DNA of 64,000 nt, taken from positions 32,942-96,941 of IMG/VR virus record IMGVR_UViG_3300017911_000967. The stretch is one strand, 5' to 3'. This document shows, piece by piece, positions 1,022-59,767 of this stretch. A program made the position numbers and the translations under genes. Below the pieces are notes generated by a model. It saw nothing but the letters and a program-made list of their open reading frames with translations. It ran no database searches and was not told where the DNA came from. The stretch comes from a virus. Its lineage: Duplodnaviria; Caudoviricetes. The stretch's first letter is position 1; every line of letters begins with the position of its first letter.

Positions 1022-2841
1022 TGGCAGTGAAGACAACCAACCTAGACTTTTTAGAGATCAAACAAAGTCTAAAACAACACTTTAAGAAGTATGATGACTA
1101 TAAGGACTATGACTTTGAAGGTTCGGGTCTCGCAAGTATTATGGATGTACTTGCCTATAATACTCATGTGAATGGTTTAATCGCGAACATGGCGATCAAT
1201 GAGTCATTTCTTAGTTCGTCACAATTACGTTCCAGTGCAGTCAGTCATGCGGAGACTCTGGGGTACACACCGAAGAGTAATACGGCATCGACGGCATACC
1301 TAGATCTCAGACTCACCACCGATACGAGTTCTATTCCTCAAAAAACCGTTCCGGGCGCGCCCAAAAAAATCGCGAAAGGACATGCATTCTTCGCAGAGGT
1401 GGGGGATACATCATACCGATTCGTAGCAACCGATGATACTTCGGCCGTCGGTAATGTATTCTCAGACGGGACAATCATCTATGACTGGACAGGCATCGAA
1501 GTCAAGGAAGGAACCTATCGCGAAAAAACCTTTTTAGTTTCATCCGAAACAGATGCCGTGTATGTTATACCAGATGTCAACGTAGACGTGTCTACAATGG
1601 TCGTCACGGTCTCGGAGAACGCAACTACCGATGAAGAGGTGTCATACTCTAACATCCTGTCAGTCGCAAGTATCACTCCAGACTCGCGTGTCTATATGAT
1701 CAAGGAGATCTCGAACGGATACTACGAGATGTTCTTCTCTGACGGTAATGTATTAGGACAGGCGCCCGCAGTGGGTTCGGTCATTAGAGTCTCATACCTA
1801 CAGACACTGGGTGAGAAGTCAAACGGTGCGGTGAACTTCAGTGCAGATCGTCTAGATGGTTTACAACTGAGTGTGACGAATACTACAGAAGCAGGCGGAG
1901 GTTCTGGTAAGGAATCCCTTGATTCGATTAAACGTAACGCACCAAGAGCGTTTGCTGCACAACAACGTTTGGTGACTGCCGAAGATTATGCGGCAATGAT
2001 TCAATCGAACTACGGAAACGATATTCAGAATGTGATCGCATGGGGTGGTGCAGATAACCAGCCACCACAGTATGGTAAAGTATTTGTCAGTCTAGATTTT
2101 TATGATGGGGTCCCATCTCAGAGACAAGACGCTGTAAAGGAATCCATTATATCAGATTTGACTTCGCATCTTTCTATTATGTCAATAGACACAGAGTTTG
2201 TCAACCCAGAGAAGACTTATCTCGAAATCAATACGGTTTTCCAGTTAGACGCAGTCTCTAAGATTGATACGCCCGAAGGACAAGCGAGTACGGTCATGCA
2301 GTTTATTGTTGACTATGTAAAAGACAACCTTGGAACCTTTGGTTCGGTATTCCGTCGTTCCAATCTACTCAGTGAGATTGACTCTATCCATCCTAGTATA
2401 CTCAACTCGCGTATGGTGGTCAAGGGTCAACAACGCATTACTGTGATAGAACCATTACCAATCAGTCATGTAGTTAACTATCCGTTTGCACTGGCGTCTC
2501 CAGACAAGGACACTCATACTGTTACGACATCTTCTTTCTTATGGCAAGGAAAAAATGTTGTCATTAAAAATGAATTAGGGTCCCATAAATTACAGATCTT
2601 TAACCTTGATGGAGATCTAGAGTTTGGTAACATTGGTCATTATGATGAAGCAAAAGGTCAGGTTCTAATCAGTGCATTAGAAGTACAGACAAACGACCTG
2701 CCTGTAGAGATCAAGATCTCAGTAGTCCCAGCAAACTCATCGACCATCCGACCATTACGTAACTATATCATAGAACTTGATGAGAGTGTGTCGACAACTC
2801 GTGCACTTGTTGATGAGGGAACAATTAAGGTCTCACTATAA
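1021..2841 (+). CDS. gp6: Baseplate wedge subunit gp6
   Basis: [11 protein letters not shown]...[19 protein letters not shown] and [32 protein letters not shown] motifs. Confidence 0.95.
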
Positions 2842-4601
2842 TGGCGATACAAATCGACGACCGTCGAAATCATGTTGCGTTACATTCGAATACGGTAAGG
2901 AATGCGCTACCTGAATTCTTCGTTGAACAATACCCAGAGTTTATTCAGTTCCTTGAAAGATACTACGAGTATATGGAAGGGAACGAGAGTGGTTCGTTTT
3001 CAAAACAGATACAGTCATTATATAATGTACGTACTATCAGTAGCATCAACGGGTCCCATCTAGACTCACTACTTGCAGAACTTGCAGAAGGGATTCAGTC
3101 AGACACATTCTATCAGAACCCTCAGTTGATGGCAAGACTTCTTGCAAACTTTTATCGTGCGAAGGGTACAGAACAATCGGTAGAACAGTTCTTCCGTGGA
3201 TTCTTCGGCGACACCGTAGAGATTGACTATCCGAAACGTAACATCTTTATTCTGAACGACAAGCCAGGTGGGTCTCTTATCGGACCAGAGAGTGTCAAGT
3301 TTATTGTTGACAATAAGAAGTATCAGATCTTCTCTATCTTATTGAAGACGGGAATGAGTCTCATAGACTACGAAGCAATCTATAAGAAGTTTGCACATCC
3401 CGCTGGTTTCTATCTTGCGGCAGAAGTGGCACTATTGTCACATGCGGTCATCGGTGTTCGTGCGGGTCCTACTACAGATCCACTAGAGACACCGAACTAT
3501 CCAGTGCCGGTAGGATCAGAAGTGGGTGGTATCAATCTACGTTCTACGTTTGCATTGATGACGTTGCGTGAAACGGATCCAGAAGACATCACATTTATTC
3601 TAAGTGCGTTAGAGACGTTAGAACGTTATGACGATATTACCATTGAACGTCTTGCAGAGGTTTATACAACAATCGCAGATTGGGCGTCGACTCGATCGTT
3701 CAGAATGAGCAACGATGAGATCCTCATGTCCGAAGACTTCGAGTTACTTGATGGAGGTGCGGCAGAGACTACGATTGATTTAAGTGTAGGGACTCCTACA
3801 AAACTTGAACCACCTCAACCTATGCCGACTCCAGATCCAGAACCTGAACCAGAACCTGAACCAGAACCTGAACCAGAGCCGGGTCCAGAACCTGAACCAG
3901 AACCTGAACCACAACCTGAACCAGAGGATGATCTGCCGGATAACGTAAGTCATTACAGATCGACATACCCAGAGTATTCATGGGAACAGTGGATACCGAC
4001 TCTTAGGGTTACGGTCAAGTGGAACGATGAAGTGATCTATGATATCACAAATCATGAAGACGGTTGGCCTACAAGACTGATTGGTCCAGATGGTCGCATT
4101 TATGAACGTGGTGATCAGGAGTCTTCTTATGGAAATGGAAATATGTTTGGTGTACTTCGTGTGGGTCCAACACCAGAACCGGAACCAGAGCCGGAACCAG
4201 AGCCGGAACCACAACCAGAACCACAACCAGAACCACAACCAGAACCTGAACCAGAACCACAACCAGAACCTGAACCGCAACCGGAACCTGAGCCGGAACC
4301 TGAACCGGAACCTGAACCGGAACCTGAACCAGAACCGGAACCATCGGACATACGATACTCTAAAGACTCTCCAAGATTCTATTGGTATCATGCAAACTTC
4401 TTCGACCCAAGAGATCGGGAGGCTATGGTCTACACGGCAGTCTATTGGGATGATGAGCTAATATTCTCAGGGAGTGGAATAAATGGAAGATCTTCTTATA
4501 CTATTGGTGGTGTGACCTATGTGCGTAGAGATCTAAGAGACTCTCAATCATATGGTTCTCAACAGAATCTGATTGAATGGTACGCCATCGAGAAATCTTA
4601 A
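2841..4601 (+). CDS. gp7: Baseplate wedge initiator gp7-like protein with Pro-Glu linkers and two small C-terminal domains
   Basis: [32 protein letters not shown]...FF, HPAGF motifs of marine T4-like gp7; position after gp6. Confidence 0.75.
3831..3926 (+). repeat. Coding (PE/PQ)n tandem repeat, linker 1
   Basis: ccagaacctgaa-type 6/12-bp units. Confidence 0.9.
4173..4343 (+). repeat. Coding (PE/PQ)n tandem repeat, linker 2
   Basis: ccagaaccggaa/ccacaa units. Confidence 0.9.
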
Positions 4602-4637: not shown

Positions 4638-7600
4638 ATGTCAAGAAAAATCATTAATACAGGAACGGGAGTTAACGACGGGTCGGGTGACACGCTTCGT
4701 ACTGCCGGTGAAAAAATTAATGACAACTTCGCTGAGATCTATAGTCTTATAACAACCGACAGCGGGATTACATTACAAGAGATAACTGACTTAATCAATT
4801 CGTCAGTCCAAACCTCTATTGATGATATTGATTTTAGTGAGATTGTTTCAAGTGTTGATTTAATTGCAAACGTAGTTGCGCAACAAGGTCTTCACGATAA
4901 TATCATTAATAGTTTAAACGCAGACGTACAAACCCTATTGGCTGGTGGTGGTGCAGTGGGACCACAAGGTCCTGTTGGTCCACAAGGTGGAGTTGGTCTT
5001 CAAGGTGGGGTTGGTCCTCAAGGTAGTCCAGGCGCACAGGGTTTCCAAGGTGTCCAAGGTAACCCAGGCGAGATGGGACCTCAAGGCGCCCAAGGTGCTC
5101 AAGGTTTTCAAGGTGTCCAAGGTAACGTTGGAGAAATGGGTCCACAGGGTGCACAAGGCGCTCAAGGTTTTCAGGGGGTCCAAGGTAACGTTGGTGAGAT
5201 GGGACCACAAGGTGCACAGGGCGCTCAGGGTTTCCAAGGTGTTCAGGGCAACGTCGGTGAGATGGGACCGCAGGGCGCACAGGGTGCTCAAGGTTTTCAG
5301 GGGGTCCAAGGTAACGTCGGTGAGATGGGACCACAGGGTGCCCAAGGTGCGACTGGATTCCAAGGTGTGCAGGGCAACGTTGGAGAAATGGGTCCTCAAG
5401 GTGCACAGGGTGCAACCGGATTCCAAGGTGTTCAGGGCAACGTCGGTGAGATGGGTCCACAAGGTGCACAAGGTCCTCAAGGTTTCCAAGGTGTTCAAGG
5501 TAATGTCGGTGAGATGGGTCCTCAAGGTGCCCAAGGTTCAACTGGTTTCCAAGGTGTTCAAGGTAACGTTGGTCCGTTAGGTCCTCAAGGTGCCCAAGGT
5601 TCAACTGGTTTCCAAGGTGTTCAAGGTAACGTTGGTCCGTTAGGTCCTCAAGGTGCACAAGGTCCTCAAGGTTTTCAAGGTGTTCAAGGTAACGTTGGTC
5701 CACTAGGTCCACAAGGATCTCAGGGCGCACAAGGTTTTCAGGGGACACAAGGCAATCCAGGCCCACTAGGTCCACAGGGATCTCAAGGTGCTCAGGGATT
5801 CCAAGGTCTTCAAGGTAACCCAGGCCCACTAGGTCCACAGGGATCTCAAGGTGCTCAGGGATTCCAAGGTCTTCAAGGTAACCCAGGCCCAAGAGGACCA
5901 CAGGGACAACAAGGCGCAACAGGTAACAGAGGTGCGACGGGTAACGTTGGTGAAGTAGGACCACAGGGTCCTCAAGGTTCTCAGGGTTTCCAAGGTGTCC
6001 AAGGTGAGGTCGGTGACAAAGGTCCACAGGGATCTCAGGGCGCACAAGGTTTCCAAGGTGTCCAAGGTGAGGTCGGTGACAAAGGTCCACAGGGATCTCA
6101 AGGTGCTCAAGGTTTTCAAGGTGTAACCGGAGAGGTTGGTGATAAAGGACCACAGGGTTCTACCGGACCGATGGGTTCACAAGGTGTAACTGGAGAGGTT
6201 GGTGATAAAGGACCACAGGGTTCCACTGGACCAACAGGTTTCCAAGGTATCACGGGTAACCCAGGCCCACTAGGACCACAGGGCGCAACTGGTGCTACTG
6301 GTGAACGAGGATTGCAAGGCCAACCCGGCCCTGCGGGACCTCAAGGTGTAACTGGTGCTCAAGGTATTCAGGGACAGACCGGACCAGAAGGTCCAAGTGG
6401 TGCACCAGGCGATCCTGGCCCTCAAGGTCCAGCAGGAACTACTCCAGGCCCTCAAGGTCCAACGGGTAACACTGGAGAACCAGGCCCGCAAGGTCCAGCA
6501 GGAACTACGCCTGGCCCACAAGGACCTCAAGGTAATACGGGTGAACCTGGCCCACAAGGTCCACAGGGAAGACAAGGTGCAACTGGACCAGATGGTGTTC
6601 AGGGTGTTCAAGGTCCTCAAGGACAACAAGGTGTAACAGGATCTATTGGTGCGCAGGGTCCACAGGGACAACAGGGTCCTCAAGGTAGACAGGGCGCCAC
6701 TGGTTTTGTTGGACCACAAGGTGCTATCGGAGATCAAGGTCCTCAAGGACGACAGGGTGCTACTGGTGTCGTTGGACCACAAGGCACTACTGGTGAAACG
6801 GGACCACAAGGTTTTCAAGGTTCTACGGGTCCAGTTGGTCCACAGGGTGTCACCGGAGATCAAGGTCCGCAAGGTAGACAAGGCGCTACGGGTTCAGTCG
6901 GTCCACAAGGTGTTACCGGAGATCAAGGTCCTCAAGGACGACAGGGTGCTACGGGTCCAATTGGACCACAAGGGGTTCAGGGACAACAGGGTCCTCAAGG
7001 CAGACAGGGTGCCACTGGTGTTCTAGGTCCACAGGGAACGCAAGGTCCCCAAGGACAACAAGGTATTCAGGGACAGACAGGTAATGTTGGTCCACAAGGT
7101 GTTACCGGAGATCAGGGACCACAAGGTAGACAAGGCGCTACGGGTCCAGTCGGACCACAGGGGGTTCAAGGTCAACAAGGTCCGCAAGGTCGCCAAGGTG
7201 CGACAGGTAATGTGGGTCCGCAGGGTATCACTGGTGATCAAGGACCGCAGGGTCGCCAAGGCGCTACGGGTCCAGTCGGACCGCAAGGCATAACTGGTGA
7301 CCAAGGTCCACAGGGAAGACAAGGCGCAACTGGTGTCGTTGGACCACAGGGTATCACTGGTGATCAAGGACCGCAGGGTCGCCAAGGCGCTACGGGTCCA
7401 GTCGGACCGCAAGGCATAACTGGTGACCAAGGTCCGCAGGGTCGTCAAGGTGCAACTGGTGTCGTTGGACCACAGGGTGTGACTGGTGATCAGGGTCCTC
7501 AAGGACGACAGGGTGCTACGGGTCCAGTCGGACCACAGGGGGTTCAAGGTCAACAAGGTCCACAGGGAAGACAAGGTGCAACTGGTGTCGTTGGACCACA

Positions 7601-8786
7601 AGGTGTGACTGGCGACCAAGGCCCACAAGGTAGACAAGGTGCGACAGGTAATGTTGGACCACAGGGTGTCCAAGGACAACAGGGTCCACAGGGTCGCCAA
7701 GGTGCAACAGGTAATGTTGGACCACAAGGTGTTCAGGGACAACAGGGACCACAAGGCAGACAAGGTGCAACAGGTAATGTTGGACCACAGGGCGTACAAG
7801 GACAACAAGGTCCTCAAGGAAGACAGGGGGCGACAGGTAATGTTGGTCCTCAAGGTGTTCAGGGACAACAGGGTCCACAGGGTCGCCAAGGTGCAACTGG
7901 TAATGTTGGTCCTCAAGGTGTCCAAGGTCAACAAGGACCACAAGGTAGACAAGGTGCAACAGGTAATGTTGGACCACAAGGTGTCCAAGGTCAGCAAGGT
8001 CCTCAAGGAAGACAAGGTGCAACTGGTGTCACTGGTGCTCAAGGACAACAAGGTCAACAGGGTCCTCAAGGTAGACAGGGTGCCACTGGTGTCCAAGGTC
8101 AGCAGGGTCCACAAGGTAGACAGGGTGCCACTGGTGTCCAAGGTCAGCAGGGTCCACAAGGTAGACAGGGTGCCACTGGTGTCACTGGTGCACAAGGTGC
8201 TCAGGGACAACAGGGACCACAGGGTCGTCAAGGTGCAACTGGTGTCACTGGTGCTCAAGGTGCACAAGGTGCTCAGGGACAACAGGGACCACAGGGTCGT
8301 CAAGGTGCCACTGGACCAGATGGTGCGCAGGGACAACAGGGTCCTAGAGGTCGCCAAGGTAATCAAGGTCAACCAGGCCCAGACGGTCCTCAAGGTGCAA
8401 CAGGTGTTGCGGGTGTAACTGGTCAACAGGGTCCAGTCGGTGGATTCGGTAACGCAGTATTATTCAATACATCGACTTCGTTCCCATCGAATGTAAACGC
8501 AACAGCCTCCAGTGGAATTAAATCTTTCCGCACAGTTGATAAGATCTTTATCGGTGACGTTTGGTGGCACATCAATACGGGTCGAGTATTCAGATCAACA
8601 TCAAATGTGACTGGGTCAGGAAACGCTAACTTCACAGAGTTGACTAACAACCAAGGATTTGTTGATATGAGTGGTCTCCTAAATACAGGGACATCACCTA
8701 ATGAACGAATTGAGTTTTCGTCAACGTCTATAGACATTTATGATAACAGCAATAGTTTGAGGGTGAAGATCGGTAAGTTGAACTAA
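4638..8786 (+). CDS. Giant collagen-like fibre protein with gp9/gp10-like N-terminal baseplate anchor
   Basis: N-terminus [31 protein letters not shown] resembles the T4 gp9/gp10 N-terminus; ~389 Gly-X-Y triplets; C-terminal IYD...LRVKIGKL. Confidence 0.88.
4950..8456 (+). repeat. Gly-X-Y collagen repeat region ([18 protein letters not shown] blocks)
   Basis: Continuous triplets with only two single-residue interruptions (GTTP near 6434 and 6501). Confidence 0.95.
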
Positions 8787-11808: not shown

Positions 11809-14800
11809 ATGACAACCGATAACAACATAGACAAACCACAACCAGTAACCGACACAACTTTCAAGACTGATTATCGTGACTACTACGATGAGAAAGATGG
11901 ATATCATCGTGTCCTATTCAATGCTGGTCGTGCATTACAAGCCAGAGAACTGATTGAACTACAGACAATAATTCAGGAAGAGATTTCTCGATTCGGTGGC
12001 AATGTATTTAAAGAAGGTGCGTTGGTAAAACCAGGCGGTGTCACTGTAGATAATAAAGTCGAGTTCGTTCGATTTACAGAAACTAGTGTAGTCCCATCGG
12101 ACATTCAGGTACTCACTCATGATGAAAGTGGTATCAAGGCAAAGGTACTTTCGGTAGATACAGAATCCAAAACTGTCTACGTACAATATACTGACACTTT
12201 AAACGCAGGTGGTGGTGAGACTGCTCCAAGGTTCTCTGTAGGTGATCGTCTTGAGGCAGGACAGGTAGAAGCGTCGGGTCTTTCGACTTGGGCATACTTC
12301 GCCTCTGGTGATTACTTTGTTCAAGGACATTTCGTCCATGCGGTTGGTGGTGAACTAATCATCGACCCAGAAGGTACCAGTTATCTGGACGCGGATGGTC
12401 GATCGATTCCCGTTGATATCGGTTTCAAGATTGAAGAAGTAATCTTCACAGAGGGTGAGGATCCAGATCTTTTTGATAATCAGGGCGAGTATCCTAACTC
12501 AACTTCTCCAGGCGCACACCGTTATAAAATCATATTAACACCATCCACTCGTGAACAATCTGACGAAAATAATTTTGTCTTCGTCGCTCGTGTTCTTAAT
12601 GGTGAGATCACACGCGAAGTAACTAGTCACGACGGATACAATCGTATCAACAAACTCCTTGCGCAACGTACCAAGGAAGAGTCTGGTGATTATGTTGTCC
12701 AAGATTTTACCGCAGTCTTCGAAGATAAGAATGATCAGGAACTAATACTAGATGTTTCTGAAGGTATCGCATACGTTGATGGATATCGACTAGACATCGG
12801 TCGTACAGAAATAACTGTACCTCGTGCACAGACTTCGAATAAAGTAGATCTGGAGAGTGTTCCAGCATCATACGGTAACTGGGTTTACCTAGACTTATCG
12901 GGTACTAATGGATTGGGAGACATCGCAAACTTCGGTAAACTTGATTTGATCGGTGCTGATGGAGATCCAACCAATCCTATAGGTTCAACTTTCTTACGTG
13001 GTATTGAAAAAGATCAGTCCGGTTTTCGTGCATACATCTTCAACACAGTAACTAACACCGATGTATCTTTCAGTCAAGTTCACGAAATGGTCACTCCCGA
13101 TGGATCGTCTGTATTAAAAGTAAGACGTGAATCAGATTCAGGAGCAACCATATACAGCACTTCTGATAATAATCTTTTATTTCCGCTGTCACAATCAAGT
13201 CCAGTTGCCAATACTCTAAACAAGATATCTTATACCCAACAAGTAATTAAGTCGGGGGAGTCTCCGGAAGACGACGGAACAATATCTATTCTTGATGGCC
13301 GAGAAACTCAGAGTTGGATTCTATCTAAAGATGGAGTTGGTATTCAAGAAGGAGAAGAATACGTCCCAACCTTGTCGGGAACTTATGAAAACCTTGATAC
13401 GAACGCGACGTACAGCATCCTTTATTATCAAACAACAGAACCTAGTAATAAGAGTAAAACTTTAAAAGACACTACTATAAATGTCACGAGTGGATACGAT
13501 CTTATTTCATCTAATGTTGTCGATGGATATGAAGTTGAAAATGTATTCCTAACAGTTGGGGACCAATCTTCAGACATCACCTTCATGTATGAAATGGATA
13601 ACGGTCAACGTGACAACTTCTATGACTTTGTTAGGTTTAAATTAAAGCCAGGTAATACTATACCAACCGGCGCGACTGTCTCTGTTACATTTAAATACTT
13701 TGAACACTCCACCACTGGAGGTTTCTTCTCCGCAGCATCATATGGAACAGGAGCAGAAGGTCAACTTTCTTATGATGAGATACCAACATACACCATGTCT
13801 AACGGCAACACGGTATCTTTACGTGACGTTATAGATTTCCGTCCATCAAGAAACTCGGATGGATCGTTCAAGGTGATGCCTTTACCCCAGAATGCATCTT
13901 CTCTTGTTCTAGATGATGTCGAATATTATCTACCTCGTATTGATGTCCTAGTGGCAAATGTTGTCGATAGTTATGGGGATGTTGGTTTTGGTGAATTACA
14001 AGTATTGCAGGGACAACCATCCACGTCTCCTAGACCACCACAGATTCCTACAGGGTCTCTTCCTCTATACGTCTATCAACTTAATGCATACACCTTCGAT
14101 TCAACAGATCTAACAAGTGAGAAACAATCTCACAAGAGATATACTATGAAGGATATCGCCAAGATCGAGAACAGATTGGAAGGTCTATATGAACTGACGA
14201 CTCTAAGTTTACTAGAGTCTAGTACGCAGTCACTAGATGTGTTGGACGCACAAGGAAACCCAAGAACCAAGGCTGGATTTATCGCGGACAACTTCTCCAC
14301 GTTTAACTTCTCCGATGTGAATAATGTAGACTACCTTGCGTCAGTGGAAACAACAAACGGAGAGTTACAACCATCGTTCAGAGAGAATCTTGTTAGGTTA
14401 AAATATGATGAGTCTCAAGGCAATTCTTCTCGCACTGGTGACTATGCAACTCTGCCTTACACACATGCTTCGTTTATAACGCAAGATGTTGCTACCAGCA
14501 CCATGAACATCAACCCGTTCGCGGTTATCACGCAGGAAGGTCACATTACACTATCACCTTCAAGTGATGAGTGGGTGGAGACCCAAACACTGCCACCAAT
14601 CATGCAGACAGTTGTACGTCGTACACCTAGAAACCCTCGCGATCTCCGCGCCGATGTAGGGTTCAACGACATGTGGAATGGTATTGCAAACTTCAATCGA
14701 AATATGTTGGCCGAACCAAACCTATTTGAAATACAACCTCTTGCTCGATCCGTCCAAGAGTTTGTTGGACAACGAGTCGCGGGTGTTGAAGTCATTCCAT

Positions 14801-16731
14801 TCATGCGATCACGTTTAGTCTCGTTCAAGGCAGAAGGTCTTCGTCCTAACGCTAAGGTATGGGCATACTTCGGTAACCGCAATGTATCCGAATGGTGTCG
14901 ACCAACGAACAGGTTTGTTGAGTTCTCAACTACAGATTCGGAAGTAGGATCAACTCAGTCTTCAGCAACAGGCATCGTTGGTTCTAGTCAGTTGACTACT
15001 AACGACAGAGGTGAAGTTGTTGGTGAGTTCTTGATCCCGAATACGGATGCATTAAGATTCCGAACAGGAACACAAGACTTCCAGATCTTAGACATCAATG
15101 TAGACACCACGTCTGCAAGACTAACAACAGAACAGGCGTCAGAGTCATTAACAAACTCTACTGCACCTTACACATCGACTGGAACTATTGAGTCCATCCA
15201 AAGAACTATCCGAACCACGCGTGTACCACAACGTGTGCGTGGTCGCCGCGATCCACTTGCGCAGTCTTTCTTTGTTGATCCAACGGAAAATCCAAACGGT
15301 ATCTTCTTAACTAAGGTGCGTGTCTATGTTCAAAGCAAAGACTCTACCATTCCAATGCAGGTACAAATTCGTCCAGTAGAGAACGGCATACCGACAACCA
15401 CTATTGTACCAGGCTCGGTGAAGTTTGTCAAACCAGATGACATCACACTTGCACCTAACACGGACATTGAAAGTATTCGGTCTAATGGAACCACCATTGA
15501 GTTCGATGAACCAGTATATCTAACCGCAGGTGAAGAGTATGCGATTGTCCTACTTGCCGAGTCAGTTGACTATAACGTATACGTAGCACAAACCTACGAG
15601 ACGATTATTGGTGGCAATGAAGGTAAGGTATCGAAACAACCTTCACTTGGTTCACTGTTCATGTCACAGAGTGGATCAACGTGGACACCAGATCAGACCA
15701 AAGATCTAATGTTCGAACTAGAACGCGCAGAGTTTGAATCGTCAGGAAATGTATATTTAATCAATGGAAGTCTACCTTTAGTATCACTGGAAGACTCTCC
15801 GTTCAGCACAACAGAATCGTCTAATCGAGTTTTGGTCCGACATGAAGGTCACGGTTTTACTAGATTTGATCAGGTAACATTCTCTGGGTCTACCGCAGTT
15901 GGTGGCCTTGATTTAAATTCAACATTTACTATTGACAATGTTACATCTACAGGGTATACTATCGTAACTGGTCAGACGAATACTGCTACATCAACTTCTG
16001 TTGGTGGTGGTAGTTCGGTCGTTGCAACTCAGAATGTCATGTTCGACGAATTCACTCCTCAAGTTTCATCTATTATGCCTAACGGAACATCTCTATCCGC
16101 TACATCGGATATGTGCAAAGGTGCATCGTATGGGGGAGATGGTGATAACGGTCGTAATCCAAATTCAAGTGGTCTTTCGTATAATAGAAATATTTCTCAA
16201 GAAGTCGTATTGAATGAAGTTAATACGGGATCACACCCATCTGTTGTCGCAACTACAGATAACAAACAGAGTCACAGTATTGAATTCAACTTGTCTCTTC
16301 AAACTTCTGACAGTAAAGTCTCTCCTTTAATTGATCTTCAACGAGTCTCCATGTTGGCTCTAGAAAATGTTATTGGTGATCAGTCAGAAGCACAACACAT
16401 CACAAGACCTACAACCATTGACGAAAGCTCGATTGGACTCAAAGTCATCTTTGGTGCAAACCGTCCAACCGGATCTTCGTTTGAAGTCTATGTTAAGACT
16501 TCTGCTGATGATGATTCGTTATCCGATGCACCTTGGACCCTAGTATCGATTGATAGTCCGGTACCTTCAGACGACAATGTATCGGTTTTCCGTGAGTATG
16601 AGTATACGCAAGAAAATCCAGATACCGTTGATTCCTTCAGTGCGTTCCAAGTAAAGGTTGTTATGAAATCAAGTAACTCATCTAAGTCTCCACGCATTCG
16701 AGACTTGCGTGTTATCGCACTGGTAACATAA
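11809..16731 (+). CDS. Large virion structural protein (VrlC/DUF4815-like)
   Basis: YHRVLFNAGRALQARELIELQTIIQ, PGAHRYKI, RYTMKDI..IENR, DPLAQSF, SLFMSQ...WT..Q..DL.F, PRIRDLRVIAL. Confidence 0.85.
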   Translation: MTTDNNIDKPQPVTDTTFKTDYRDYYDEKDGYHRVLFNAGRALQARELIELQTIIQEEISRFGGNVFKEGALVKPGGVTVDNKVEFVRFTETSVVPSDIQVLTHDESGIKAKVLSVDTESKTVYVQYTDTLNAGGGETAPRFSVGDRLEAGQVEASGLSTWAYFASGDYFVQGHFVHAVGGELIIDPEGTSYLDADGRSIPVDIGFKIEEVIFTEGEDPDLFDNQGEYPNSTSPGAHRYKIILTPSTREQSDENNFVFVARVLNGEITREVTSHDGYNRINKLLAQRTKEESGDYVVQDFTAVFEDKNDQELILDVSEGIAYVDGYRLDIGRTEITVPRAQTSNKVDLESVPASYGNWVYLDLSGTNGLGDIANFGKLDLIGADGDPTNPIGSTFLRGIEKDQSGFRAYIFNTVTNTDVSFSQVHEMVTPDGSSVLKVRRESDSGATIYSTSDNNLLFPLSQSSPVANTLNKISYTQQVIKSGESPEDDGTISILDGRETQSWILSKDGVGIQEGEEYVPTLSGTYENLDTNATYSILYYQTTEPSNKSKTLKDTTINVTSGYDLISSNVVDGYEVENVFLTVGDQSSDITFMYEMDNGQRDNFYDFVRFKLKPGNTIPTGATVSVTFKYFEHSTTGGFFSAASYGTGAEGQLSYDEIPTYTMSNGNTVSLRDVIDFRPSRNSDGSFKVMPLPQNASSLVLDDVEYYLPRIDVLVANVVDSYGDVGFGELQVLQGQPSTSPRPPQIPTGSLPLYVYQLNAYTFDSTDLTSEKQSHKRYTMKDIAKIENRLEGLYELTTLSLLESSTQSLDVLDAQGNPRTKAGFIADNFSTFNFSDVNNVDYLASVETTNGELQPSFRENLVRLKYDESQGNSSRTGDYATLPYTHASFITQDVATSTMNINPFAVITQEGHITLSPSSDEWVETQTLPPIMQTVVRRTPRNPRDLRADVGFNDMWNGIANFNRNMLAEPNLFEIQPLARSVQEFVGQRVAGVEVIPFMRSRLVSFKAEGLRPNAKVWAYFGNRNVSEWCRPTNRFVEFSTTDSEVGSTQSSATGIVGSSQLTTNDRGEVVGEFLIPNTDALRFRTGTQDFQILDINVDTTSARLTTEQASESLTNSTAPYTSTGTIESIQRTIRTTRVPQRVRGRRDPLAQSFFVDPTENPNGIFLTKVRVYVQSKDSTIPMQVQIRPVENGIPTTTIVPGSVKFVKPDDITLAPNTDIESIRSNGTTIEFDEPVYLTAGEEYAIVLLAESVDYNVYVAQTYETIIGGNEGKVSKQPSLGSLFMSQSGSTWTPDQTKDLMFELERAEFESSGNVYLINGSLPLVSLEDSPFSTTESSNRVLVRHEGHGFTRFDQVTFSGSTAVGGLDLNSTFTIDNVTSTGYTIVTGQTNTATSTSVGGGSSVVATQNVMFDEFTPQVSSIMPNGTSLSATSDMCKGASYGGDGDNGRNPNSSGLSYNRNISQEVVLNEVNTGSHPSVVATTDNKQSHSIEFNLSLQTSDSKVSPLIDLQRVSMLALENVIGDQSEAQHITRPTTIDESSIGLKVIFGANRPTGSSFEVYVKTSADDDSLSDAPWTLVSIDSPVPSDDNVSVFREYEYTQENPDTVDSFSAFQVKVVMKSSNSSKSPRIRDLRVIALVT

Positions 16732-22551: not shown

Positions 22552-22559
22552 TATAAATA
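22552..22559 (+). promoter_or_regulatory. T4-type late promoter TATAAATA
   Basis: Exact consensus upstream of the 1602-aa repeat protein. Confidence 0.8.
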
Positions 22560-22610: not shown

Positions 22611-25600
22611 GTGTCAGCATCTAGTATACCACTAAAAATTCAAAATGCTAATGGTGACCTACAAGAATTCACTCCATCGGACGAATTATTTCTTTCGTAT
22701 GCAGTGGGACAAGCATTAGTTGCGGCCGCATCTAATGACGTTGGTAATATCAGTTTGACTGAAGGCCAATCAATCGGTTCATTTGTAGATTCTTACTACA
22801 ATGAAATATCTGGCACCCACCCTGCTTCACAGATCACGGGTGCCTCAGTGACCACCACTCTGAAGCAAGTGAGTGGCCCAGCAGATGAATCCGGTGCAGA
22901 CTTTGTCCGTCCAGTAGGTTATTACGACGTTGATCCAAACCCAGGCTTCTACGAAATGGTAGACGGGGACTTGGACAACCTAGCAGGTCGTGTTCTGTCT
23001 AACTTAGTACAGAACGACTATATCGGTACTTTCAAACTGTCCGCTACCCAACCAAGTGCAGACTATACAAAGTTCATTGACTCTGTATTCTCCGACACTC
23101 ACGGTAATGGTGCAGGTGGTACCGTAGTAACAAACTACCACATTTGGATGCGTACTTCTATGACGGCGGTTGCTCCAGTTCGTCCAGTAGCGACAAGCTA
23201 CGACGGTTCTGGTTTCAACGGTCTACGTGAAATGACAGATGCCCAGATCCAGTACACACTAGGTCAACGCATCAAGTCACTTCGTGCTACTTCCGGAGCG
23301 ATTGGTTCATACCAACTACGTTCAACAGCACAGGGCGCACCAACAGTCCCAGGCACATGGGTGTCTGTAGGCACTGCACAGAACACACGTCGTACACCAG
23401 TTGACGTTGCATACGCAAGAACTCGCGTATCTTCATACAACCGTGCACGTGTTTCTGCATACACTCGTACTCGTACATCTTCATATACGCGTAACAGTGT
23501 CAGTACATTTACTCGCACATTCGTAGGAAACTACGTCGGTGCATATTCACGTGACTTTGTAGGCAACTACTCACGTGACTTTGTTGGGAACTACTCACGT
23601 ACTCGCCCATCATCGTACTCAGGTACATACGCACGTACTCGCGTATCATCGTATTCACGTACTCGCCTAACTGCGTTTACTGGATACTTCGCGGGAACTT
23701 ACTCACGTGCTCGTGTTTCGGTTTACACTCGTAACCGCGTCACACCATTCACTGGTACATTCTCACGTAACCGTACTTCATCGTACACTCGTGGCCGTGT
23801 ATCATCTTACGTAGGCACTTACGCTCGCACACGTGTATCTTCATACTCAGCAGATTACACACGTAACCGTGTATCAACATATTCAGGAACTTATGCGGGA
23901 ACATACTCCCGTCTACGTGTTTCTGCGTATGCTGGAACATACACGCGCAACCGTGTTTCTTCTTATGCTGGAACATACACACGCACACGCGTATCTGCAT
24001 ATGCGACAGACTTTACCCGCGTCCGTGAACAGAACTTCGCAGGGACTTACACTGGTTACTATACTGGCGTATTCTCTCGTGCTCGTGTATCAACTTATAC
24101 GCGTAACCGTGTAACAGGTTTCGCAGGTAACTTCATCGGAAACTACTCTCGCAACTTCCAAGGTAACTATTCACGTAACTTCGTGGGTAACTACTCTCGT
24201 GGATTTGCTGGTAACTTCGTAGGTAACTACTCTCGCGTATCAACACGTACATCAACTCGCACACGTTACAGTGCTTACGCTCGTACACGCATCACTAACT
24301 ACGTTGGTGACTTTGCTCGTGATCGCGTCACTAACTTTGCGGGTAACTTCGTAGGAAACTACGCTCGCACCTTCGTAGGTAACTACGGTGGTAACTATAT
24401 CGGAAACTACGCTCGTGACTTCGTTGGAAACTACGTTGGTAACTACGCTCGTGCATATGTAGGTAACTACTCTCGCGGATTCGTAGGTAACTACGGTCGT
24501 AACTTCCTTGGAAACTTTGTCGGCAACTACAGCCGCAACTTCCTTGGTGACTTCGTCGGAAACTACGCTCGTGGTTTCGTCGGCGACTTCGTTGGAAATT
24601 TCGTAGGTAACTATGCACGTACTTCAACTCGTACATCTACTCGTACTCGTTACAGTGCATACGCTCGTACTCGTGCGACAAACTATACAAGAACTCGTGG
24701 TTCTTCTTACGCTCGTACTCGTGTCACTAACTACGTTGGTAACTTCACGCGCACATCTACTCGTAGCAGACCATCTACGTTCTCTTACGCACGTACTCTA
24801 TACTACGCAGGTGACTTCGTAGGTAACTATGGTCGTACTCGCGTAACAAACTACACTCGTGCTTCAGCGGTAGGTGTAACCTATACAGGTAACTACACAC
24901 GTAACCTATACTACGTCGGTAACTATGCCCGTGCATTCGCAGGAGATTTCGTAGGTAACTATGCTCGTAACCGTGCGTTCTCATACGTAGGTAACTACGC
25001 TCGTAACCGTGCGTTCTCATACGCAGGTAACTACTCACGTACTCGTGTAACAAACTTTGCAGGGAACTTCGTAGGCAACTACGCTCGTAACTTTGTGGGT
25101 AATTATAGTCGACAAGCGGGATTCTCTCGTAACTATGCTGGTAACTATTCTCGTAACTTTACTCGGGCCCGTTCGTTCTCATTCGCAGGTAACTACACAC
25201 GTACTGTTACATCAACTCGAACTTCTACTGGTACCACATGGGTCAATTTGCCAAACGGATCGACAGGCCCTACCAGCGCTGGCCATACTTACATTTACTA
25301 TAATGAAGATAGAGATCGATGGATCGGTAAGATAAATGGTCAGTGGTTATACTCGAACTATTCCGGAAATAGATTCTACTACTTTGGTTCGACGCCAGGA
25401 GCTATCGGAACAACGTTCTCGACAGTAGCTTATAACGGGTCTCCGGCCGGATTCTGGCGAGTAGGTGTTTCCTATTATGATACGAACGATGATAGAGATT
25501 ATCACTATATTCAGCAACAAAGCACGAATTCCTACACCGGAAACTTTGTAGGTAACTTAACATACACGCGCACCCGTGCTGGTACCTATACTGGTAACTA

Positions 25601-27419
25601 CTCTCGCGCATATGTACGTTGGCGCAGTCAACAATATACACGTACTCAGAACTATTCAAGAACTCGAGCTGCGGCTTACACACGTGATCGAGTCACTAAC
25701 TTCGCAGGTAACTTCGGTGGTACGTATACGCGTACTCGTGCTGGTAACTACACTGGTAACTACGCACGTACTCGTGCTGGTAACTACACTGGTAACTACG
25801 CTCGCACGTCAACACGTACACGTTACTCTGCATACGCAAGAACTCGCGTTGCGACAGGTACTTACACGCGTAACCGCGCTGCGACACTATACTACACTGG
25901 TGACTTTGTAGGTAACTTCGCAGGTGCATACACACGCACATCAACACGTACATCTACTAGGCCTGGTTACTACACACGTACACTAACTTACGCAGGTAAC
26001 TACGTAGGTAACTATACGACAACGTTCACTGGCGACTTCGTCGGTAACTATGCGCGTAACTTTGTGGGTGACTATGTTGGTAACTTCGTAGGTAACTATG
26101 CGCGTGGATTTGCTGGTAACTTTGCTGGTAACTTTGTAGGTGAATATGCACGTACTCGTGTAACGAACTACACTCGTACTCGTAACTCTGCGTACACACG
26201 TAACCGCACACAGAACTTTGCGAACTCTTACGCTCGCACACGTGAAACAAACTTCACTGGTTACTACACACGCAACCGTGCATCCGCATACGCTCGTACT
26301 CGTTACAGCGCATACGCTCGCACACGTGTAACTAACTACGTAGGTGACTTCACACGCGATTCAACCCGCACATCTACTCGTAACCGTGTTCCGACATACA
26401 CTCGTGATCGTGTAACTAACTTCGCTGGTAACTTCGTAGGAAACTACGCAACAACGTTTACCGGAGACTTCGTTGGTAACTACGCACGTGGATTTGCTGG
26501 TGAATATGCTGGTAACTTTACTGGTAACTATGCTCGTACTTCAACGCGCACTCGTTACTCTGCATACGCACGTACTCGTGTATCTGCATACGTCCGCAAC
26601 CGTGGATCATCATACACCCGTGACCGTGTAACTAACTTTGCTGGTGACTTCGTAGGTAACTACGCTCGCACCTTCTCTGGTCAGTACACACGTCAGTTCG
26701 TTGGTGAGTATGTTGGTGATTACGTAGGAACGTTCGCAGGTAACTACGTTGGTAACTTCACTCGTGGATTCGGTGGAAACTACGTCGGTAACTATGCACG
26801 TGGATTTGCTGGTAACTACGTAGGAAACTATAACCGTAGTTTCTTAGGTGAGTACACTGGTGCTTACTCTGGTACTTACTCTCGTGGATTTGCGGGTAAC
26901 TATGTAGGTAACTACAACCGTGGGTTCGTTGGTGAGTACACTGGCGCTTACAACCGTACATTCACAGGTAACTACTCTCGTGACTTCTCCGGTCAGTACA
27001 CACGCGACTTTGCTGGTGACTTCGTAGGTAACTACAGTCGTCAGTTCGCAGGTGAGTACACTGGTGCTTATGCGCGTGACTTCGTAGGTAACTTCGTGGG
27101 TAACTACAACCGTGGTTTCGTTGGTGAGTACACTGGTGCTTACTCTCGTGACTTCGTAGGTAACTACTCTCGTGTCCGTGTATCTGCATACGCACGTATC
27201 AGAACGTCTTCTTACTCAGGAGCATACACACGTGACCGTGTTTCTTCTTACGTAGGTGACTTTACTGGTAACTATACTCGTAACTTTGGTGGTAACTACA
27301 CCCGTGACTTTGCTGGAAACTACGCACGTAGCTTCGTCGGTAACTACATCGGTGCAACCATCTCTGATACACAGACCCACGTTACTGATACATATACATT
27401 ATATGTAAGGGTTGCATAA
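22611..27419 (+). CDS. Giant tetrapeptide-repeat structural protein; predicted self-complementary antiparallel beta-hairpin fibre
   Basis: GTG start after a late promoter; ~270-aa base domain, arm 1 (res 269-872), ~100-aa tip, arm 2 (res 976-1579), short C-terminal strand; units xRxR, xSxY, xGNY, xRxF. Confidence 0.85.
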   Translation: MSASSIPLKIQNANGDLQEFTPSDELFLSYAVGQALVAAASNDVGNISLTEGQSIGSFVDSYYNEISGTHPASQITGASVTTTLKQVSGPADESGADFVRPVGYYDVDPNPGFYEMVDGDLDNLAGRVLSNLVQNDYIGTFKLSATQPSADYTKFIDSVFSDTHGNGAGGTVVTNYHIWMRTSMTAVAPVRPVATSYDGSGFNGLREMTDAQIQYTLGQRIKSLRATSGAIGSYQLRSTAQGAPTVPGTWVSVGTAQNTRRTPVDVAYARTRVSSYNRARVSAYTRTRTSSYTRNSVSTFTRTFVGNYVGAYSRDFVGNYSRDFVGNYSRTRPSSYSGTYARTRVSSYSRTRLTAFTGYFAGTYSRARVSVYTRNRVTPFTGTFSRNRTSSYTRGRVSSYVGTYARTRVSSYSADYTRNRVSTYSGTYAGTYSRLRVSAYAGTYTRNRVSSYAGTYTRTRVSAYATDFTRVREQNFAGTYTGYYTGVFSRARVSTYTRNRVTGFAGNFIGNYSRNFQGNYSRNFVGNYSRGFAGNFVGNYSRVSTRTSTRTRYSAYARTRITNYVGDFARDRVTNFAGNFVGNYARTFVGNYGGNYIGNYARDFVGNYVGNYARAYVGNYSRGFVGNYGRNFLGNFVGNYSRNFLGDFVGNYARGFVGDFVGNFVGNYARTSTRTSTRTRYSAYARTRATNYTRTRGSSYARTRVTNYVGNFTRTSTRSRPSTFSYARTLYYAGDFVGNYGRTRVTNYTRASAVGVTYTGNYTRNLYYVGNYARAFAGDFVGNYARNRAFSYVGNYARNRAFSYAGNYSRTRVTNFAGNFVGNYARNFVGNYSRQAGFSRNYAGNYSRNFTRARSFSFAGNYTRTVTSTRTSTGTTWVNLPNGSTGPTSAGHTYIYYNEDRDRWIGKINGQWLYSNYSGNRFYYFGSTPGAIGTTFSTVAYNGSPAGFWRVGVSYYDTNDDRDYHYIQQQSTNSYTGNFVGNLTYTRTRAGTYTGNYSRAYVRWRSQQYTRTQNYSRTRAAAYTRDRVTNFAGNFGGTYTRTRAGNYTGNYARTRAGNYTGNYARTSTRTRYSAYARTRVATGTYTRNRAATLYYTGDFVGNFAGAYTRTSTRTSTRPGYYTRTLTYAGNYVGNYTTTFTGDFVGNYARNFVGDYVGNFVGNYARGFAGNFAGNFVGEYARTRVTNYTRTRNSAYTRNRTQNFANSYARTRETNFTGYYTRNRASAYARTRYSAYARTRVTNYVGDFTRDSTRTSTRNRVPTYTRDRVTNFAGNFVGNYATTFTGDFVGNYARGFAGEYAGNFTGNYARTSTRTRYSAYARTRVSAYVRNRGSSYTRDRVTNFAGDFVGNYARTFSGQYTRQFVGEYVGDYVGTFAGNYVGNFTRGFGGNYVGNYARGFAGNYVGNYNRSFLGEYTGAYSGTYSRGFAGNYVGNYNRGFVGEYTGAYNRTFTGNYSRDFSGQYTRDFAGDFVGNYSRQFAGEYTGAYARDFVGNFVGNYNRGFVGEYTGAYSRDFVGNYSRVRVSAYARIRTSSYSGAYTRDRVSSYVGDFTGNYTRNFGGNYTRDFAGNYARSFVGNYIGATISDTQTHVTDTYTLYVRVA
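23415..25226 (+). repeat. Hairpin arm 1: 4-residue-period repeats
   Basis: ARTR VSSY NRAR VSAY ... VGNY ... TRTS; 604 codons. Confidence 0.9.
25536..27347 (+). repeat. Hairpin arm 2: 4-residue-period repeats complementary to arm 1
   Basis: TGNF VGNL ... ARSF VGNY; 604 codons. Confidence 0.9.
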
Positions 27420-27526: not shown

Positions 27527-27988
27527 ATGAGTTATAGACGTTGGATGGACAACGCTTTTTGGGAAACAGAAGAGAAGAAAGAACTAAACTGTATCCTAGA
27601 AATGGAAGATGATGTGGGTCGTGTCACCCGTCAACAGATGTTGTTGGCAAGACATGATCGTGATGGAAATCCTAACGAGTTGTTTGCGGAAGTCGTGGAC
27701 GCACTTGGTGAAGAGTTGATCGATAAGGAAACTACCGATCGAGTCGAACGCAAAGCTGCGGAGGCGGAAGAAGAGAAACAACGTGAGTTAGAACATCAAA
27801 AGGCAAGGAAGCTTGAGAAACTGTTCAACTACAAACTAGAAGCGTTTGAGGTTGAAGAGATCAAGAACTCTAAGAACCGCAAGTTGAAGGCAAAATTGCG
27901 TCGTGCAAAATCAAAGATTGAAGTAGATATGTACTCAATCATGATTCTACAAGACCAACTAGAGGCCGAGACAGATGGAAAAGAGTAA
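27527..27988 (+). CDS. Hypothetical acidic helical protein (candidate fibre chaperone)
   Basis: GGAG upstream, 153 aa, charged helical C-half; function inferred from position only. Confidence 0.6.
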   Translation: MSYRRWMDNAFWETEEKKELNCILEMEDDVGRVTRQQMLLARHDRDGNPNELFAEVVDALGEELIDKETTDRVERKAAEAEEEKQRELEHQKARKLEKLFNYKLEAFEVEEIKNSKNRKLKAKLRRAKSKIEVDMYSIMILQDQLEAETDGKE

Positions 27989-28712
27989 AGGGTTTATTAT
28001 CGTTGCGTCAAAGAAGCGCAACTTTTATTTGTACGCAATCAATCTTGCAGAGTCTCTCAGGGACTACTATGAACCAGAAGAGGAATGCAAGATCTGTTTG
28101 GTGACTGAGGAACGATTCCTTGATGACCGTGGTCGAGATGTCGCAGACGATATTCTCTTATGTGACGATCACTACCGCGCTAAGTTATGGGGTATGGCGA
28201 AATCGCCGTATGACCTAACGATGTATATCGATGCTGATATGGAAGTAGAACACGAAGACATCTGTAAAGTTTGGGATGAAATGAAGGACCATGATGTGGT
28301 CTTTACTGCTTTGACAGATGATCGTGACTACATATATGCAGAACGTGACTTTGACACTCCAGAGGGTGTTTCTAAGTTCACACTATGCGGTGCAGTATGT
28401 TTATATGATATGTCCAAACCGATTGTGCGTGAATTCATGAATGATTGGTGGGACTTGACATTCAGACAGATGAATGACACTTGGTGGCCAGACGGGTATG
28501 CGGACAGTCTCAAATCTTGGGACCAGTTCTCACTCTGGTGGTTGACTGAGAAAGAAGAAAAGTATAAGGATCTCAAAGTTGGAATCTTTGATGACGACTT
28601 GAGATGGAACTACTACAACGCACTTAATTGGGCAATAACAAAACCAGAAACAGGGCCAGTGATTATCCGTCACTTCTCTGCTGGTCTTAATAAGGATACA
28701 CCAATCGTATGA
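27975..28712 (+). CDS. GT-A glycosyltransferase (GT8-like/nucleotide-diphospho-sugar transferase)
   Basis: AINLAESLR, K...MAKSPYDLTMYIDAD (DxD), WDQFSL, RWN motifs. Confidence 0.78.
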   Translation: MEKSKGFIIVASKKRNFYLYAINLAESLRDYYEPEEECKICLVTEERFLDDRGRDVADDILLCDDHYRAKLWGMAKSPYDLTMYIDADMEVEHEDICKVWDEMKDHDVVFTALTDDRDYIYAERDFDTPEGVSKFTLCGAVCLYDMSKPIVREFMNDWWDLTFRQMNDTWWPDGYADSLKSWDQFSLWWLTEKEEKYKDLKVGIFDDDLRWNYYNALNWAITKPETGPVIIRHFSAGLNKDTPIV

Positions 28713-29416
28713 CACAGTTAAACGACCAATATCTAAAGCACGTCGAAGTTAAGAACCCTGAGTTGCTTGCGATTCTGGACAACTACGCTGGACTACCGAA
28801 GATTCCTGGCTTTGCAGAGAACTGTCACTGCACTTCTCAGGAACGTATTCGTCAGCGTAACTGGTACGTTGGACCAAAGTACATGCAAGAGATTGTAGAT
28901 GAGGGAACGCAACACGAAGGTTTCCCAGATGAGATGGTAGGTTATAACTTTAAACTATCAGATCGCGCTCACCAGATGTTCGAGTCAGATGCAGATCCAA
29001 TCTTCAAGCGTGACATGACGCACATGTTGTCAGATTTAAACGACAAGATGATGAACTTCCTGTCAGTCAAGCACAATGCGCTTGCAGCGGTATACCCGCC
29101 AGGCGGTTTCATTGCATGGCACAACAACGCTAACGCGCCAGGATTCAATCTAATCTTCTCTTACTCAGAGAGTGGTTCAGGTTGGTTCGACTACATCCAT
29201 CCGGAAACTAAAGAAGTTATCCGTTGTCAAGACAAGCCAGGTCAGTGGACTTGCAAGGCAGCATACTTCGGACACTACGGAGAAGAAGAGAAACTAATGT
29301 ATCACGCTGCATCTTCAGAAGATGATTGGCGCGTAACAGTTTCTTACGTCTTCGACTGGTCTGAGACTTCAGAAGAATTCCGTGAGATGGTCTTAGAAGA
29401 CATCGCTTCAGAATAA
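28709..29416 (+). CDS. 2OG-Fe(II) oxygenase-like (DSBH) protein, paralog of 51798-52442
   Basis: YPPGGFIAWHNN...MYHAA...RVTVSY. Confidence 0.7.
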   Translation: MTQLNDQYLKHVEVKNPELLAILDNYAGLPKIPGFAENCHCTSQERIRQRNWYVGPKYMQEIVDEGTQHEGFPDEMVGYNFKLSDRAHQMFESDADPIFKRDMTHMLSDLNDKMMNFLSVKHNALAAVYPPGGFIAWHNNANAPGFNLIFSYSESGSGWFDYIHPETKEVIRCQDKPGQWTCKAAYFGHYGEEEKLMYHAASSEDDWRVTVSYVFDWSETSEEFREMVLEDIASE

Positions 29417-59518: not shown

Positions 59519-59767
59519 ATGAAACTATATGACCCCCTGATTGCAAAAGAGACCACAATCCACGTTGCGCTTGGGACGGTCATAAACTACCCACTTAACA
59601 TCTTCTATACATGGTTAGCGGTTGTTAAGTGGGGTATCACGGACCCGTTGATGTTGTCCACTATTCTTACTGTTGGAATATCCTTTGTCGCGTTCACTCG
59701 CATATACATAGTAAGGACTCTTACAGAAAGACGTAAGACAAAATTAAACCAAGAAACGCCGCTATAG
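59519..59767 (+). CDS. Small two-TM membrane protein
   Basis: Two hydrophobic stretches, R.Y.VR..; stop codon lies inside the tRNA 5' end; no obvious RBS. Confidence 0.55.
   Translation: MKLYDPLIAKETTIHVALGTVINYPLNIFYTWLAVVKWGITDPLMLSTILTVGISFVAFTRIYIVRTLTERRKTKLNQETPL

Follow-up and report, generated by a model that had tools for sequence, protein, structure and literature searches.

Background

The chains of trimeric β-structured and collagen-like fibre shafts are parallel, each starting at the base and having its C-terminus at the far end. Extended β-structure with no conventional hydrophobic core also occurs in stable single chains, such as the central sheet of Borrelia OspA and the G5-E repeats of staphylococcal SasG; these are short or tandem local modules, and we know of none that is a single hairpin pairing residues about 1300 positions apart. 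In T4 gp37 a needle, domain D11 (residues 882–1009), is inserted into a collar, domain D10 (residues 811–881 and 1010–1026), and seven coordinated iron atoms lie along the needle axis (PMC6957217). Here we analyse a gene in a 64,000-nucleotide (nt) stretch of viral DNA (positions 32,942 to 96,941 of IMG/VR record IMGVR_UViG_3300017911_000967; hereafter the window), which we infer to be part of the genome of a T4-like cyanomyovirus. The 1602-residue product contains two 604-residue repeat arms that are complementary to each other, unit by unit, when one is read forward and the other backward. The evidence indicates an extremely long, thin fold-back fibre of a kind not described before.

The likeness of this protein to gp37 is one of topology only: an elongated element would exit a small base, bear the distal end and return, and the extreme C-terminus would complete the base. 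The gene also has a fibre-gene context in a T4-like myovirus, as that of gp37 does. In other respects the two differ. The arms are 604 residues long here, and up to about 1000 in relatives, versus about 64 in gp37; neither arm contains any His, so the HxH iron-site motifs of the gp37 needle are absent; the base is a three-repeat unit in a single chain; and the register appears to come from a pattern of Arg, Gly and aromatic complementarity. There is no Pfam, PHROG or Protein Data Bank (PDB) sequence match to the gp37/gp12 collar or fibre families, and T4 gp11 (1el6), whose collar fold is common to gp12, gp10 and gp11, aligns with the AlphaFold2 (AF2) base over 45–49 residues only (Z 2.3–3.4). 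Since the fold-back topology is alike but sequence similarity and His are lacking and the arms are longer, the protein would work like a fold-back fibre tip without being a member of that family. The original prediction, made from the sequence of the window alone, had called the architecture unlike any characterised phage fibre. That remains so for sequence and metal sites and probably for the fold, but the out-and-back topology is shared with gp37 D11 (PMC6957217). Like the trimeric shafts (the adenovirus triple β-spiral, the T4 gp5/gp12 triple β-helix and collagen-like shafts), the protein would be long, thin and repeat-built and would hold a distal binding domain off the particle; unlike them, it would have both termini at the base, and its arms are complementary to each other rather than identical.

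Complementarity between the arms of the window protein

The gene and the two arms are as follows.

22611..27419 (+): whole fibre gene, a single open reading frame (ORF) with a GTG start, 1602 codons plus stop
23415..25226 (+): arm 1, residues 269–872, 151 four-residue units, net charge +79, 91 Arg and no Lys
25536..27347 (+): arm 2, residues 976–1579, 151 units, pairing with arm 1 at i+j = 1847

The span covered by the original prediction, 23415–27347, corresponds to residues 269–1579 of the product. The whole protein is basic (isoelectric point 10.2), with 193 Arg and Lys residues, only six of them Lys, and no Cys; the two arms together have 171 Arg, no Lys, no His and a net charge of +132. 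The proposed four-residue unit is real, with aromatic residues spaced by four in 159 cases and by eight in 47 and one phase kept over long stretches. When the repeats are parsed from residue 269, the aromatic residue falls at unit position 4, and positions 1 and 3 are occupied by small or semi-polar residues (V/A/T/S and N/T/S/D).

Units were assigned to the classes xRxR/S, xSxY, xRxF and xGxY, and arm 1 read forward was compared with arm 2 read backward. Two of the pairing rules that had been proposed hold without exception: xRxR/xRxS units always face xGx(Y/F) units (38/38 for arm 1 units and 28/28 for arm 2 units, 66/66 in all), and a position-2 Arg never faces another, there being no Arg-unit:Arg-unit opposition at register 0. 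A third rule, that xSxY faces xRxF/Y, holds in part (17 of 29 arm 1 units and 10 of 18 arm 2 units), the remaining xSxY units mostly facing xGxY. At register 0, 93 of the 151 unit pairs are complementary. Registers shifted by 1–12 units give 23–58 complementary pairs and 11–32 Arg clashes, and complementary pairs make up at most 40% of a parallel alignment of the arms. None of 20,000 shuffles of unit order reached the observed value for complementarity or for clashes, the best having 50 complementary pairs and the lowest clash count being 5. The swapping of Arg-rich and Gly-rich blocks between the arms was also borne out, the Arg-rich member changing arm 16 times. The mirror complementarity is therefore real and far beyond chance.

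At the level of single residues, mutual information has two maxima, at i+j = 1847 and 1849 (z about 7 relative to same-phase registers), so that the antidiagonal signal lies far above shifted registers, as the original prediction required. Both strand faces covary at 1847 (z 8.3 for positions 2 and 4 and z 4.1 for positions 1 and 3), whereas only one does at 1849, which makes 1847 the likelier direct pairing. The dominant residue pairs at i+j = 1847 are Y:Y, R:G, R:F and S:R, and R:R scores −4.4 bits in the pair-count matrix (2 in the doubled count). Phase shifts of two residues are mirrored as well: QA at 835–836 lies opposite QQ at 1011–1012, and aromatic:aromatic pairs continue to 862:985.

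Arm lengths and mirrored indels among homologs

A scan of IMG/VR with the N-terminal 270 residues yielded 37 loci; forms both shorter and longer came from protein searches. Phage C48C1 (Kyanoviridae, OQ984149) is the one relative in culture, and its syntenic gene is annotated as hypothetical. Each homolog was aligned to its own reverse by dynamic programming (DP) with the pair-score matrix from the window protein, a parallel alignment serving as the control. One ungapped antidiagonal spans the whole arms in each of 18 distinct homologs (scores of 110–284 versus 9–16 for the parallel control). Their arms start at residues 261–273, end 19–27 residues short of the C-terminus and are 408, 442, 575–674, 761 or 935 residues long; arms of equal length, as predicted, are thus found across the range of 408–935 residues. 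Close relatives are not independent cases, the matrix having been trained on the window protein, and the argument is carried by the distant lineages and by a matrix-free count of R:R oppositions. In the 18 proteins this count is 0–3 at the true register, versus means of 15–42 (minimum 9–26) at same-phase shifted registers. Lineages carry differing block patterns, each with its own exact complement, and homolog P0003, in which the strand leaving the base is Gly-rich and the returning one Arg-rich, the opposite polarity, still has a single dominant antidiagonal.

Indels are mirrored between the arms of the window protein at the following sites.

24627..24632 (+): arm-1 indel site, before residue 674, where the window protein is without 28 residues of six close relatives
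26097..26126 (+): arm-2 indel site, about residue 1168 (the mirror of 674 is 1173), where the matching 28 residues are missing

The symmetric compensation of indels expected from pairing of the arms is therefore found, 28 residues at 674 being matched by 28 at about 1168, close to the expected 1173. Comparison of the predicted proteins shows an antiparallel correspondence between arms, arms of equal length and mirrored indels. A single uncompensated indel was seen: relative to homolog L019, L021 lacks 24 arm-2 residues, which leaves arm-1 residues 438–461 unpartnered. The unpaired stretch may be tolerated as a bulge, the variant may be defective, or the assembly may be in error.

The size range of the family extends in both directions, and in all more than 20 relatives of widely differing length keep the complementarity. 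In three giants, the C48C1 protein (3347 residues), P0045 (3893) and P0046 (3884), several globular domains lie in arm 2 only, and the intervening repeats pair, one after another, with an arm 1 that is about 1000 residues long and has no interruption (pairing scores of 189–247 versus 13–20, with ungapped pairing blocks of up to 415). Homolog L034 has a 229-residue insert in arm 2, and a mini-homolog, L037, has only 312 residues and arms of about 25. In the C48C1 protein (L001:12001-22044), residues from about 2400 to 3255 comprise four tandem arm-2 modules, in each of which about 75 residues of shaft lead into a globular domain of about 150–175 residues, the four domains being related. A larger arm-2 domain lies at about 1807–2050, and the 75-residue stretch 2009–2082 is exactly repeated in tandem at 2084–2157, which may be a real duplication or an assembly artefact.

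Some metagenomic homologs (P0032/P0033, P0034 and P0041/P0042) have the same three-repeat base and a ..TYTLYVR/TYTLYCK tail and differ in their arm repeats (FAGVRSFSGPR.., DPTSFTTTDP.. and QYTGQYTTQF.., respectively), so the base and tail scaffold seems, from these predicted proteins, to accept several shaft chemistries. These homologs were examined by an aromatic-mirror scan only; aromatic coincidence is not specific as a register test in arms of period four. Modest peaks (z 3.4–5.2) were found for P0034, P0041 and P0042 near the sum estimated from the end of the base and the start of the tail, and none was found near the expected sum for P0032/P0033. Repeat-masked DP performed worse, because Arg-rich stretches are without an aromatic period, and the unmasked DP was kept.

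Closure of the base by the C-terminal tail

The base and the tail consist of the following parts, as delimited by AF2 models of L037 and the 711-residue homolog P0010 and by alignment of bases.

22611..22904 (+): base repeat 1, residues 1–98, strand-strand-helix-strand plus a closed β-hairpin
22905..23177 (+): base repeat 2, residues 99–189, hairpin closed by a short Gly-rich turn (..FSDTH-GNGAGG-TVVTNYHIWMRT)
23178..23414 (+): base repeat 3, first part, residues 190–268, the outgoing hairpin strand continuing directly into arm 1
27348..27416 (+): C-terminal tail, residues 1580–1602, ..DTYTLYVRVA, the return strand completing base repeat 3

The N-terminal domain is common to all complete homologs, and so is a C-terminal tail whose last residues are ..TYTLYVRVA or nearly so. 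The AF2 model of L037 contains three copies of a strand-strand-helix-strand element plus hairpin, the third hairpin (227–251/285–310) being formed by the short arms and the C-terminal tail. In the AF2 model of P0010 the base and the last 20 residues have predicted local distance difference test (pLDDT) values above 90 (the final two 10-residue blocks averaging 95 and 89), and strands 251–262 and 264–269 are paired to 699–709 and 688–693, respectively. Sequence likeness links the return strand of repeat 2 to the C-terminal tail, both in the window protein (TNYHIWMRT versus TYTLYVRVA) and in L037 (STYLWRKTA versus KSLWVKTA). Since AF2 places the tail as the return strand of the third hairpin, the models, together with the homology of the repeats, show a base closed by the tail and hence pairing of the arms within one chain. 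The structural check suggested by the original prediction, carried out on L037 and P0010, thus succeeded for the base, which is confidently closed by the tail, but not for the arms, which were left unmodelled (pLDDT 25–35 in P0010). Where homologs have no tip domain, turn-like motifs (NPNMGE, PKSG and YGE) are found at the centre that the distant arms predict.

Searches for relatives of the base gave little. Foldseek found no match in the PDB or BFVD at E ≤ 0.001, a profile of 16 base domains found nothing among PDB sequences at E < 0.4, and an ESM-Atlas feature search returned only unnamed viral clusters of about 310–330 residues with scores below 0.9. The best structural matches to the AF2 base, consistent between two independent models, are pseudo-threefold β-prisms (Z 5.0–7.2, root-mean-square deviation 3.6–5.9), namely the C-terminal domain of Photorhabdus MACPF (2qp2), Mp2Ba1 (8b6v) and an MABP domain (3tow). 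The 111–121 aligned residues cover all three repeats and the C-terminal tail, and the three repeats have the same predicted secondary structure; identity is only 8–14%, however, none of these proteins has an extended hairpin, and Z values in this range are common for unrelated models. In P0002, P0045 and P0046, about 470 residues of FG-GAP-like (PF14312) and LamG-like (PF13385) domains lie inside base repeat 3, between RPxAxxYD and FDGFKEMTD.

The apex and its hypervariable surroundings

At the centre of symmetry the repeats give way to a domain of a different kind.

25227..25535 (+): apex (tip) domain, residues 873–975, 103 residues, non-repetitive and aromatic-rich, at symmetry centre 923.5
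25023..25730 (+): hypervariable distal cassette, about residues 805–1040, the tip plus about 65 residue pairs of shaft

The apex domain had no match among 1.84 billion representative proteins, and the tips of relatives are unrelated, being domains of about 56–230 residues or just an aromatic-rich turn. Relative to seven homologs that are about 84–86% identical over the whole protein, divergence is confined to about residues 805–1040. The boundaries of this cassette are mirror-symmetric, with sums of 1841–1851, from which it follows that the exchanged unit is the end of the hairpin. Hypervariability and cassette exchange of such a predicted distal end is the usual signature of a specificity determinant, and the apex is probably the host-recognition end. 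Four homologs without a tip domain (L016, L019, L025 and L029) have in common an aromatic-rich apex motif, Y(S/A)R(W/M/Y)..(G)..(Y/F)(F/Y)(Y/T)(T/L)(R/T)T, centred exactly on the symmetry point. This motif may be a minimal binding tip.

Genomic context

The fibre gene sits in a run of + strand structural genes and is preceded by a candidate promoter.

22552..22559 (+): T4-type late promoter motif TATAAATA, 52 nt 5' of the GTG start

The motif occurs 13 times in the window versus 1.66 expected, and 12 of the 13 copies are on the + strand. The next + strand copy after that of the fibre gene is at 29443, so the gene and three genes downstream of it are flanked by two late promoter motifs. A terminator scan 5' of the promoter called none; a GC-rich stem and T run are seen there by eye only, and we claim no terminator. 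The fibre gene is preceded by genes for a 1081-residue tail fibre (phrog_9729) and a 150-residue chaperone of fibre assembly (PF16778, E 1.5e-16); after it come genes for an LtfC-like and a fibre-like protein and two ORFs of very large size. The gene thus lies in a fibre module that appears to be expressed late (fibre and chaperone neighbours, TATAAATA), and the distal end of its product is hypervariable, both of which are in keeping with the functional class of fibres.

The three genes between the fibre gene and the motif at 29443 overlap one another (27527–29416). The first encodes a charged, helical-looking product of 153 residues; the second encodes a product of 245 residues that contains YIDADME, a DxD motif, and matches GT2 weakly (E 0.006, below the cut-off); and the 235-residue product of the third was without a match in a Pfam search. 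All three genes also lie directly 3' of the gene for the mini-homolog in L037 (29–34% identity) and are present at the same place in C48C1. Because they adjoin the mini-homolog too, they are tied to the family of the base and tail and not to arm length, and their products may be assembly or modification factors.

Further upstream, window positions 4638–8786 encode a 1382-residue protein with a T4 gp9/10-like N-terminus followed by very long collagen triple-helix repeats (Pfam Collagen, E 2e-174), and positions 11809–16731 encode a 1640-residue protein with DUF4815 (E 6e-60) and a weak lectin-like match, in whose place C48C1 has a syntenic hypothetical giant. A tRNA-Thr gene (anticodon TGT) lies at 59758–59833 among + strand phage genes. 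The whole 1602-residue fibre protein matched no Pfam family at E ≤ 0.01, and neither its base domain nor its tip had a PHROG match. A literature search found no mention of phage C48C1 or, in this context, of the motifs FVGNY, VGNYAR and YTLYVRVA, and a search on cyanophage fibres found nothing comparable.

Discussion

It is, we consider, highly probable that the product of the gene is a fibre, expressed late by a T4-like cyanophage, in which one chain is folded back on itself. The core of the original prediction, long-range antiparallel pairing of two arms in one chain, is supported by the antidiagonal covariation, the equal arms, the mirrored indels and the closure of the base in AF2 models. 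In the proposed fibre, the protein would be anchored by residues 1–268, a base in which three repeats follow in tandem and each finishes with a β-hairpin. The hairpin of the third repeat would be drawn out into 604 residues running outward, a 103-residue apex and 604 residues running back in the register i+j = 1847, and the last 23 residues would re-enter the base as its final strand. On the face of the shaft that bears positions 2 and 4, Arg would lie opposite Gly or Phe, Ser opposite Arg and Tyr opposite Tyr in a continuous ladder of Arg and aromatic residues, with Gly making room opposite Arg, and the other face would carry small residues. Contacts between Arg and aromatic residues may be of the cation-π type, which the counts of R:G, R:F, Y:Y and S:R pairs fit. 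The 16 irregular swaps of Arg-rich and Gly-rich blocks could serve as a register barcode, a form of negative design against slippage: because every slipped register puts many Arg opposite Arg, a repeat of such low complexity would zip in one way only. The strongly cationic shaft would lengthen the reach of an exchangeable apex for host recognition and of the shaft adjoining it. A β-ribbon geometry of the arms is suggested by the two-residue alternation, the β-prone composition and the pairing statistics. At 0.27–0.33 nm per residue, we estimate that the 604 pairs would make a shaft of about 160–200 nm and that arms of the C48C1 type would reach about 300 nm.

Several observations weigh against this interpretation. 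The AF2 model left the arms of P0010 unstructured, with no verdict between a ribbon, a solenoid and local hairpins, and gave the distal mini-hairpin of L037 a pLDDT below 50; the ribbon geometry of the arms consequently rests on sequence logic. The xSxY:xRxF rule is kept in only 27 of 47 cases, a stretch of 24 residues in arm 1 of L021 is uncompensated, and the pairing scores of three short homologs (P0008, P0010 and P0025; 12.6–22) exceed the controls (5.6–13) only modestly. Finally, a free ribbon of two strands with a length of about 200 nm would, to our knowledge, be unprecedented, and some bundling may therefore be needed. That the shaft is a free-standing, single-chain, two-stranded β-ribbon of 150–350 nm, with its register set by an aperiodic code of strand complementarity, is accordingly a reading that we put forward tentatively.

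A folded-back chain might instead associate with two others into a six-stranded antiparallel tube, a very long and metal-free analogue of the gp37 needle in which V/A/T/N face inward and the Arg and aromatic residues outward. Characterised phage fibres are nearly all trimers, the small and semi-polar residues at positions 1 and 3 would suit a narrow core, and a lone ribbon of such length seems fragile. The D11 domain of gp37 is itself an out-and-back insertion in D10 (PMC6957217). The base, however, is already a three-repeat unit within one chain, weakly similar to pseudo-threefold β-prisms, as if a monomer imitated a trimer; His and metal motifs are absent; and positions 1 and 3 covary across the arms (z 4.1) as direct cross-strand neighbours would, although such covariation is still compatible with a core. 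We regard the tube as a credible arrangement while stopping short of calling it probable. Much less can be said for a domain-swapped dimer, in which arm 1 of one chain would pair with arm 2 of another to give a rod of double length with a base at each end and the tips in the middle. Covariation along i+j = constant cannot by itself separate a head-to-tail dimer from pairing within a chain, but the homologous hairpins of repeats 1 and 2 close within the chain by turns of four to six residues, the arms of the mini-homolog are only about 25 residues long, turn motifs lie exactly at the predicted centre of tip-less homologs and the centre otherwise holds a hypervariable globular domain, as would be expected of a distal tip. 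The dimer is thus very improbable.

The mirror complementarity might also be a by-product of how the DNA arose, for example by an ancient inverted duplication read in another frame, with no physical pairing of the arms. It is true that repeat genes evolve through duplication and that short inverted matches (14–25 nt) exist here. There is no large-scale inverted repeat, however, arm 1 and the reverse-complemented arm 2 having identities of 0.34–0.36 at many offsets with no peak at the pairing register, and reverse-complement translation by hand of ARTR and VSSY gives TSTS or V*RY rather than the observed partners. A DNA palindrome was rejected as the cause on these grounds, with inverted matches of only 14–25 nt and an arm identity of 34–36% at all offsets. 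Moreover, independent lineages combine different block patterns with exact complements and mirrored indels, which requires ongoing selection, and we give this explanation almost no credence. It is also conceivable that the fold-back ribbon is real and does not bind a receptor at its tip, being a decorative or whisker filament, an environmental sensor or a cationic tether whose shaft binds polyanionic surface polymers. The net charge of +132 on the arms, with 171 Arg and no Lys, is in line with such a role, as are the lack of detectable similarity between the base and known fibre attachment domains and the several other large fibres that the phage encodes. The apex, however, varies more than any other part of the protein, relatives that are otherwise nearly identical exchange it as a cassette, and the gene is adjoined by fibre and fibre-chaperone genes; we therefore think a role of this kind unlikely.

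If the proposed fold-back fibre is correct, it represents a new way to build a long fibre, in which one chain is zipped to itself over 400 to about 1000 residue pairs and the register is enforced by negative design against slippage rather than by the symmetry of a trimer. Should the shaft be a free ribbon, it would constitute a new class of fibrous fold and a natural case of programmable strand pairing in a protein. The family is an unusually clean natural dataset, in which one scaffold is combined with dozens of arm lengths, with mirrored indels and with several repeat chemistries; rules of cross-strand pairing in β-sheets could be learned from it, and it could provide a template for long, addressable protein ribbons. 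For structure prediction the family marks a limit: AF2 resolves the base with pLDDT above 90 but cannot fold the arms at all, and annotation that relies on predicted structures therefore cannot at present see architectures like this one. The adsorption apparatus of T4-like cyanophages is poorly understood, and the protein described here is a probable host-recognition fibre, with a swappable apex cassette, of marine members of this group.

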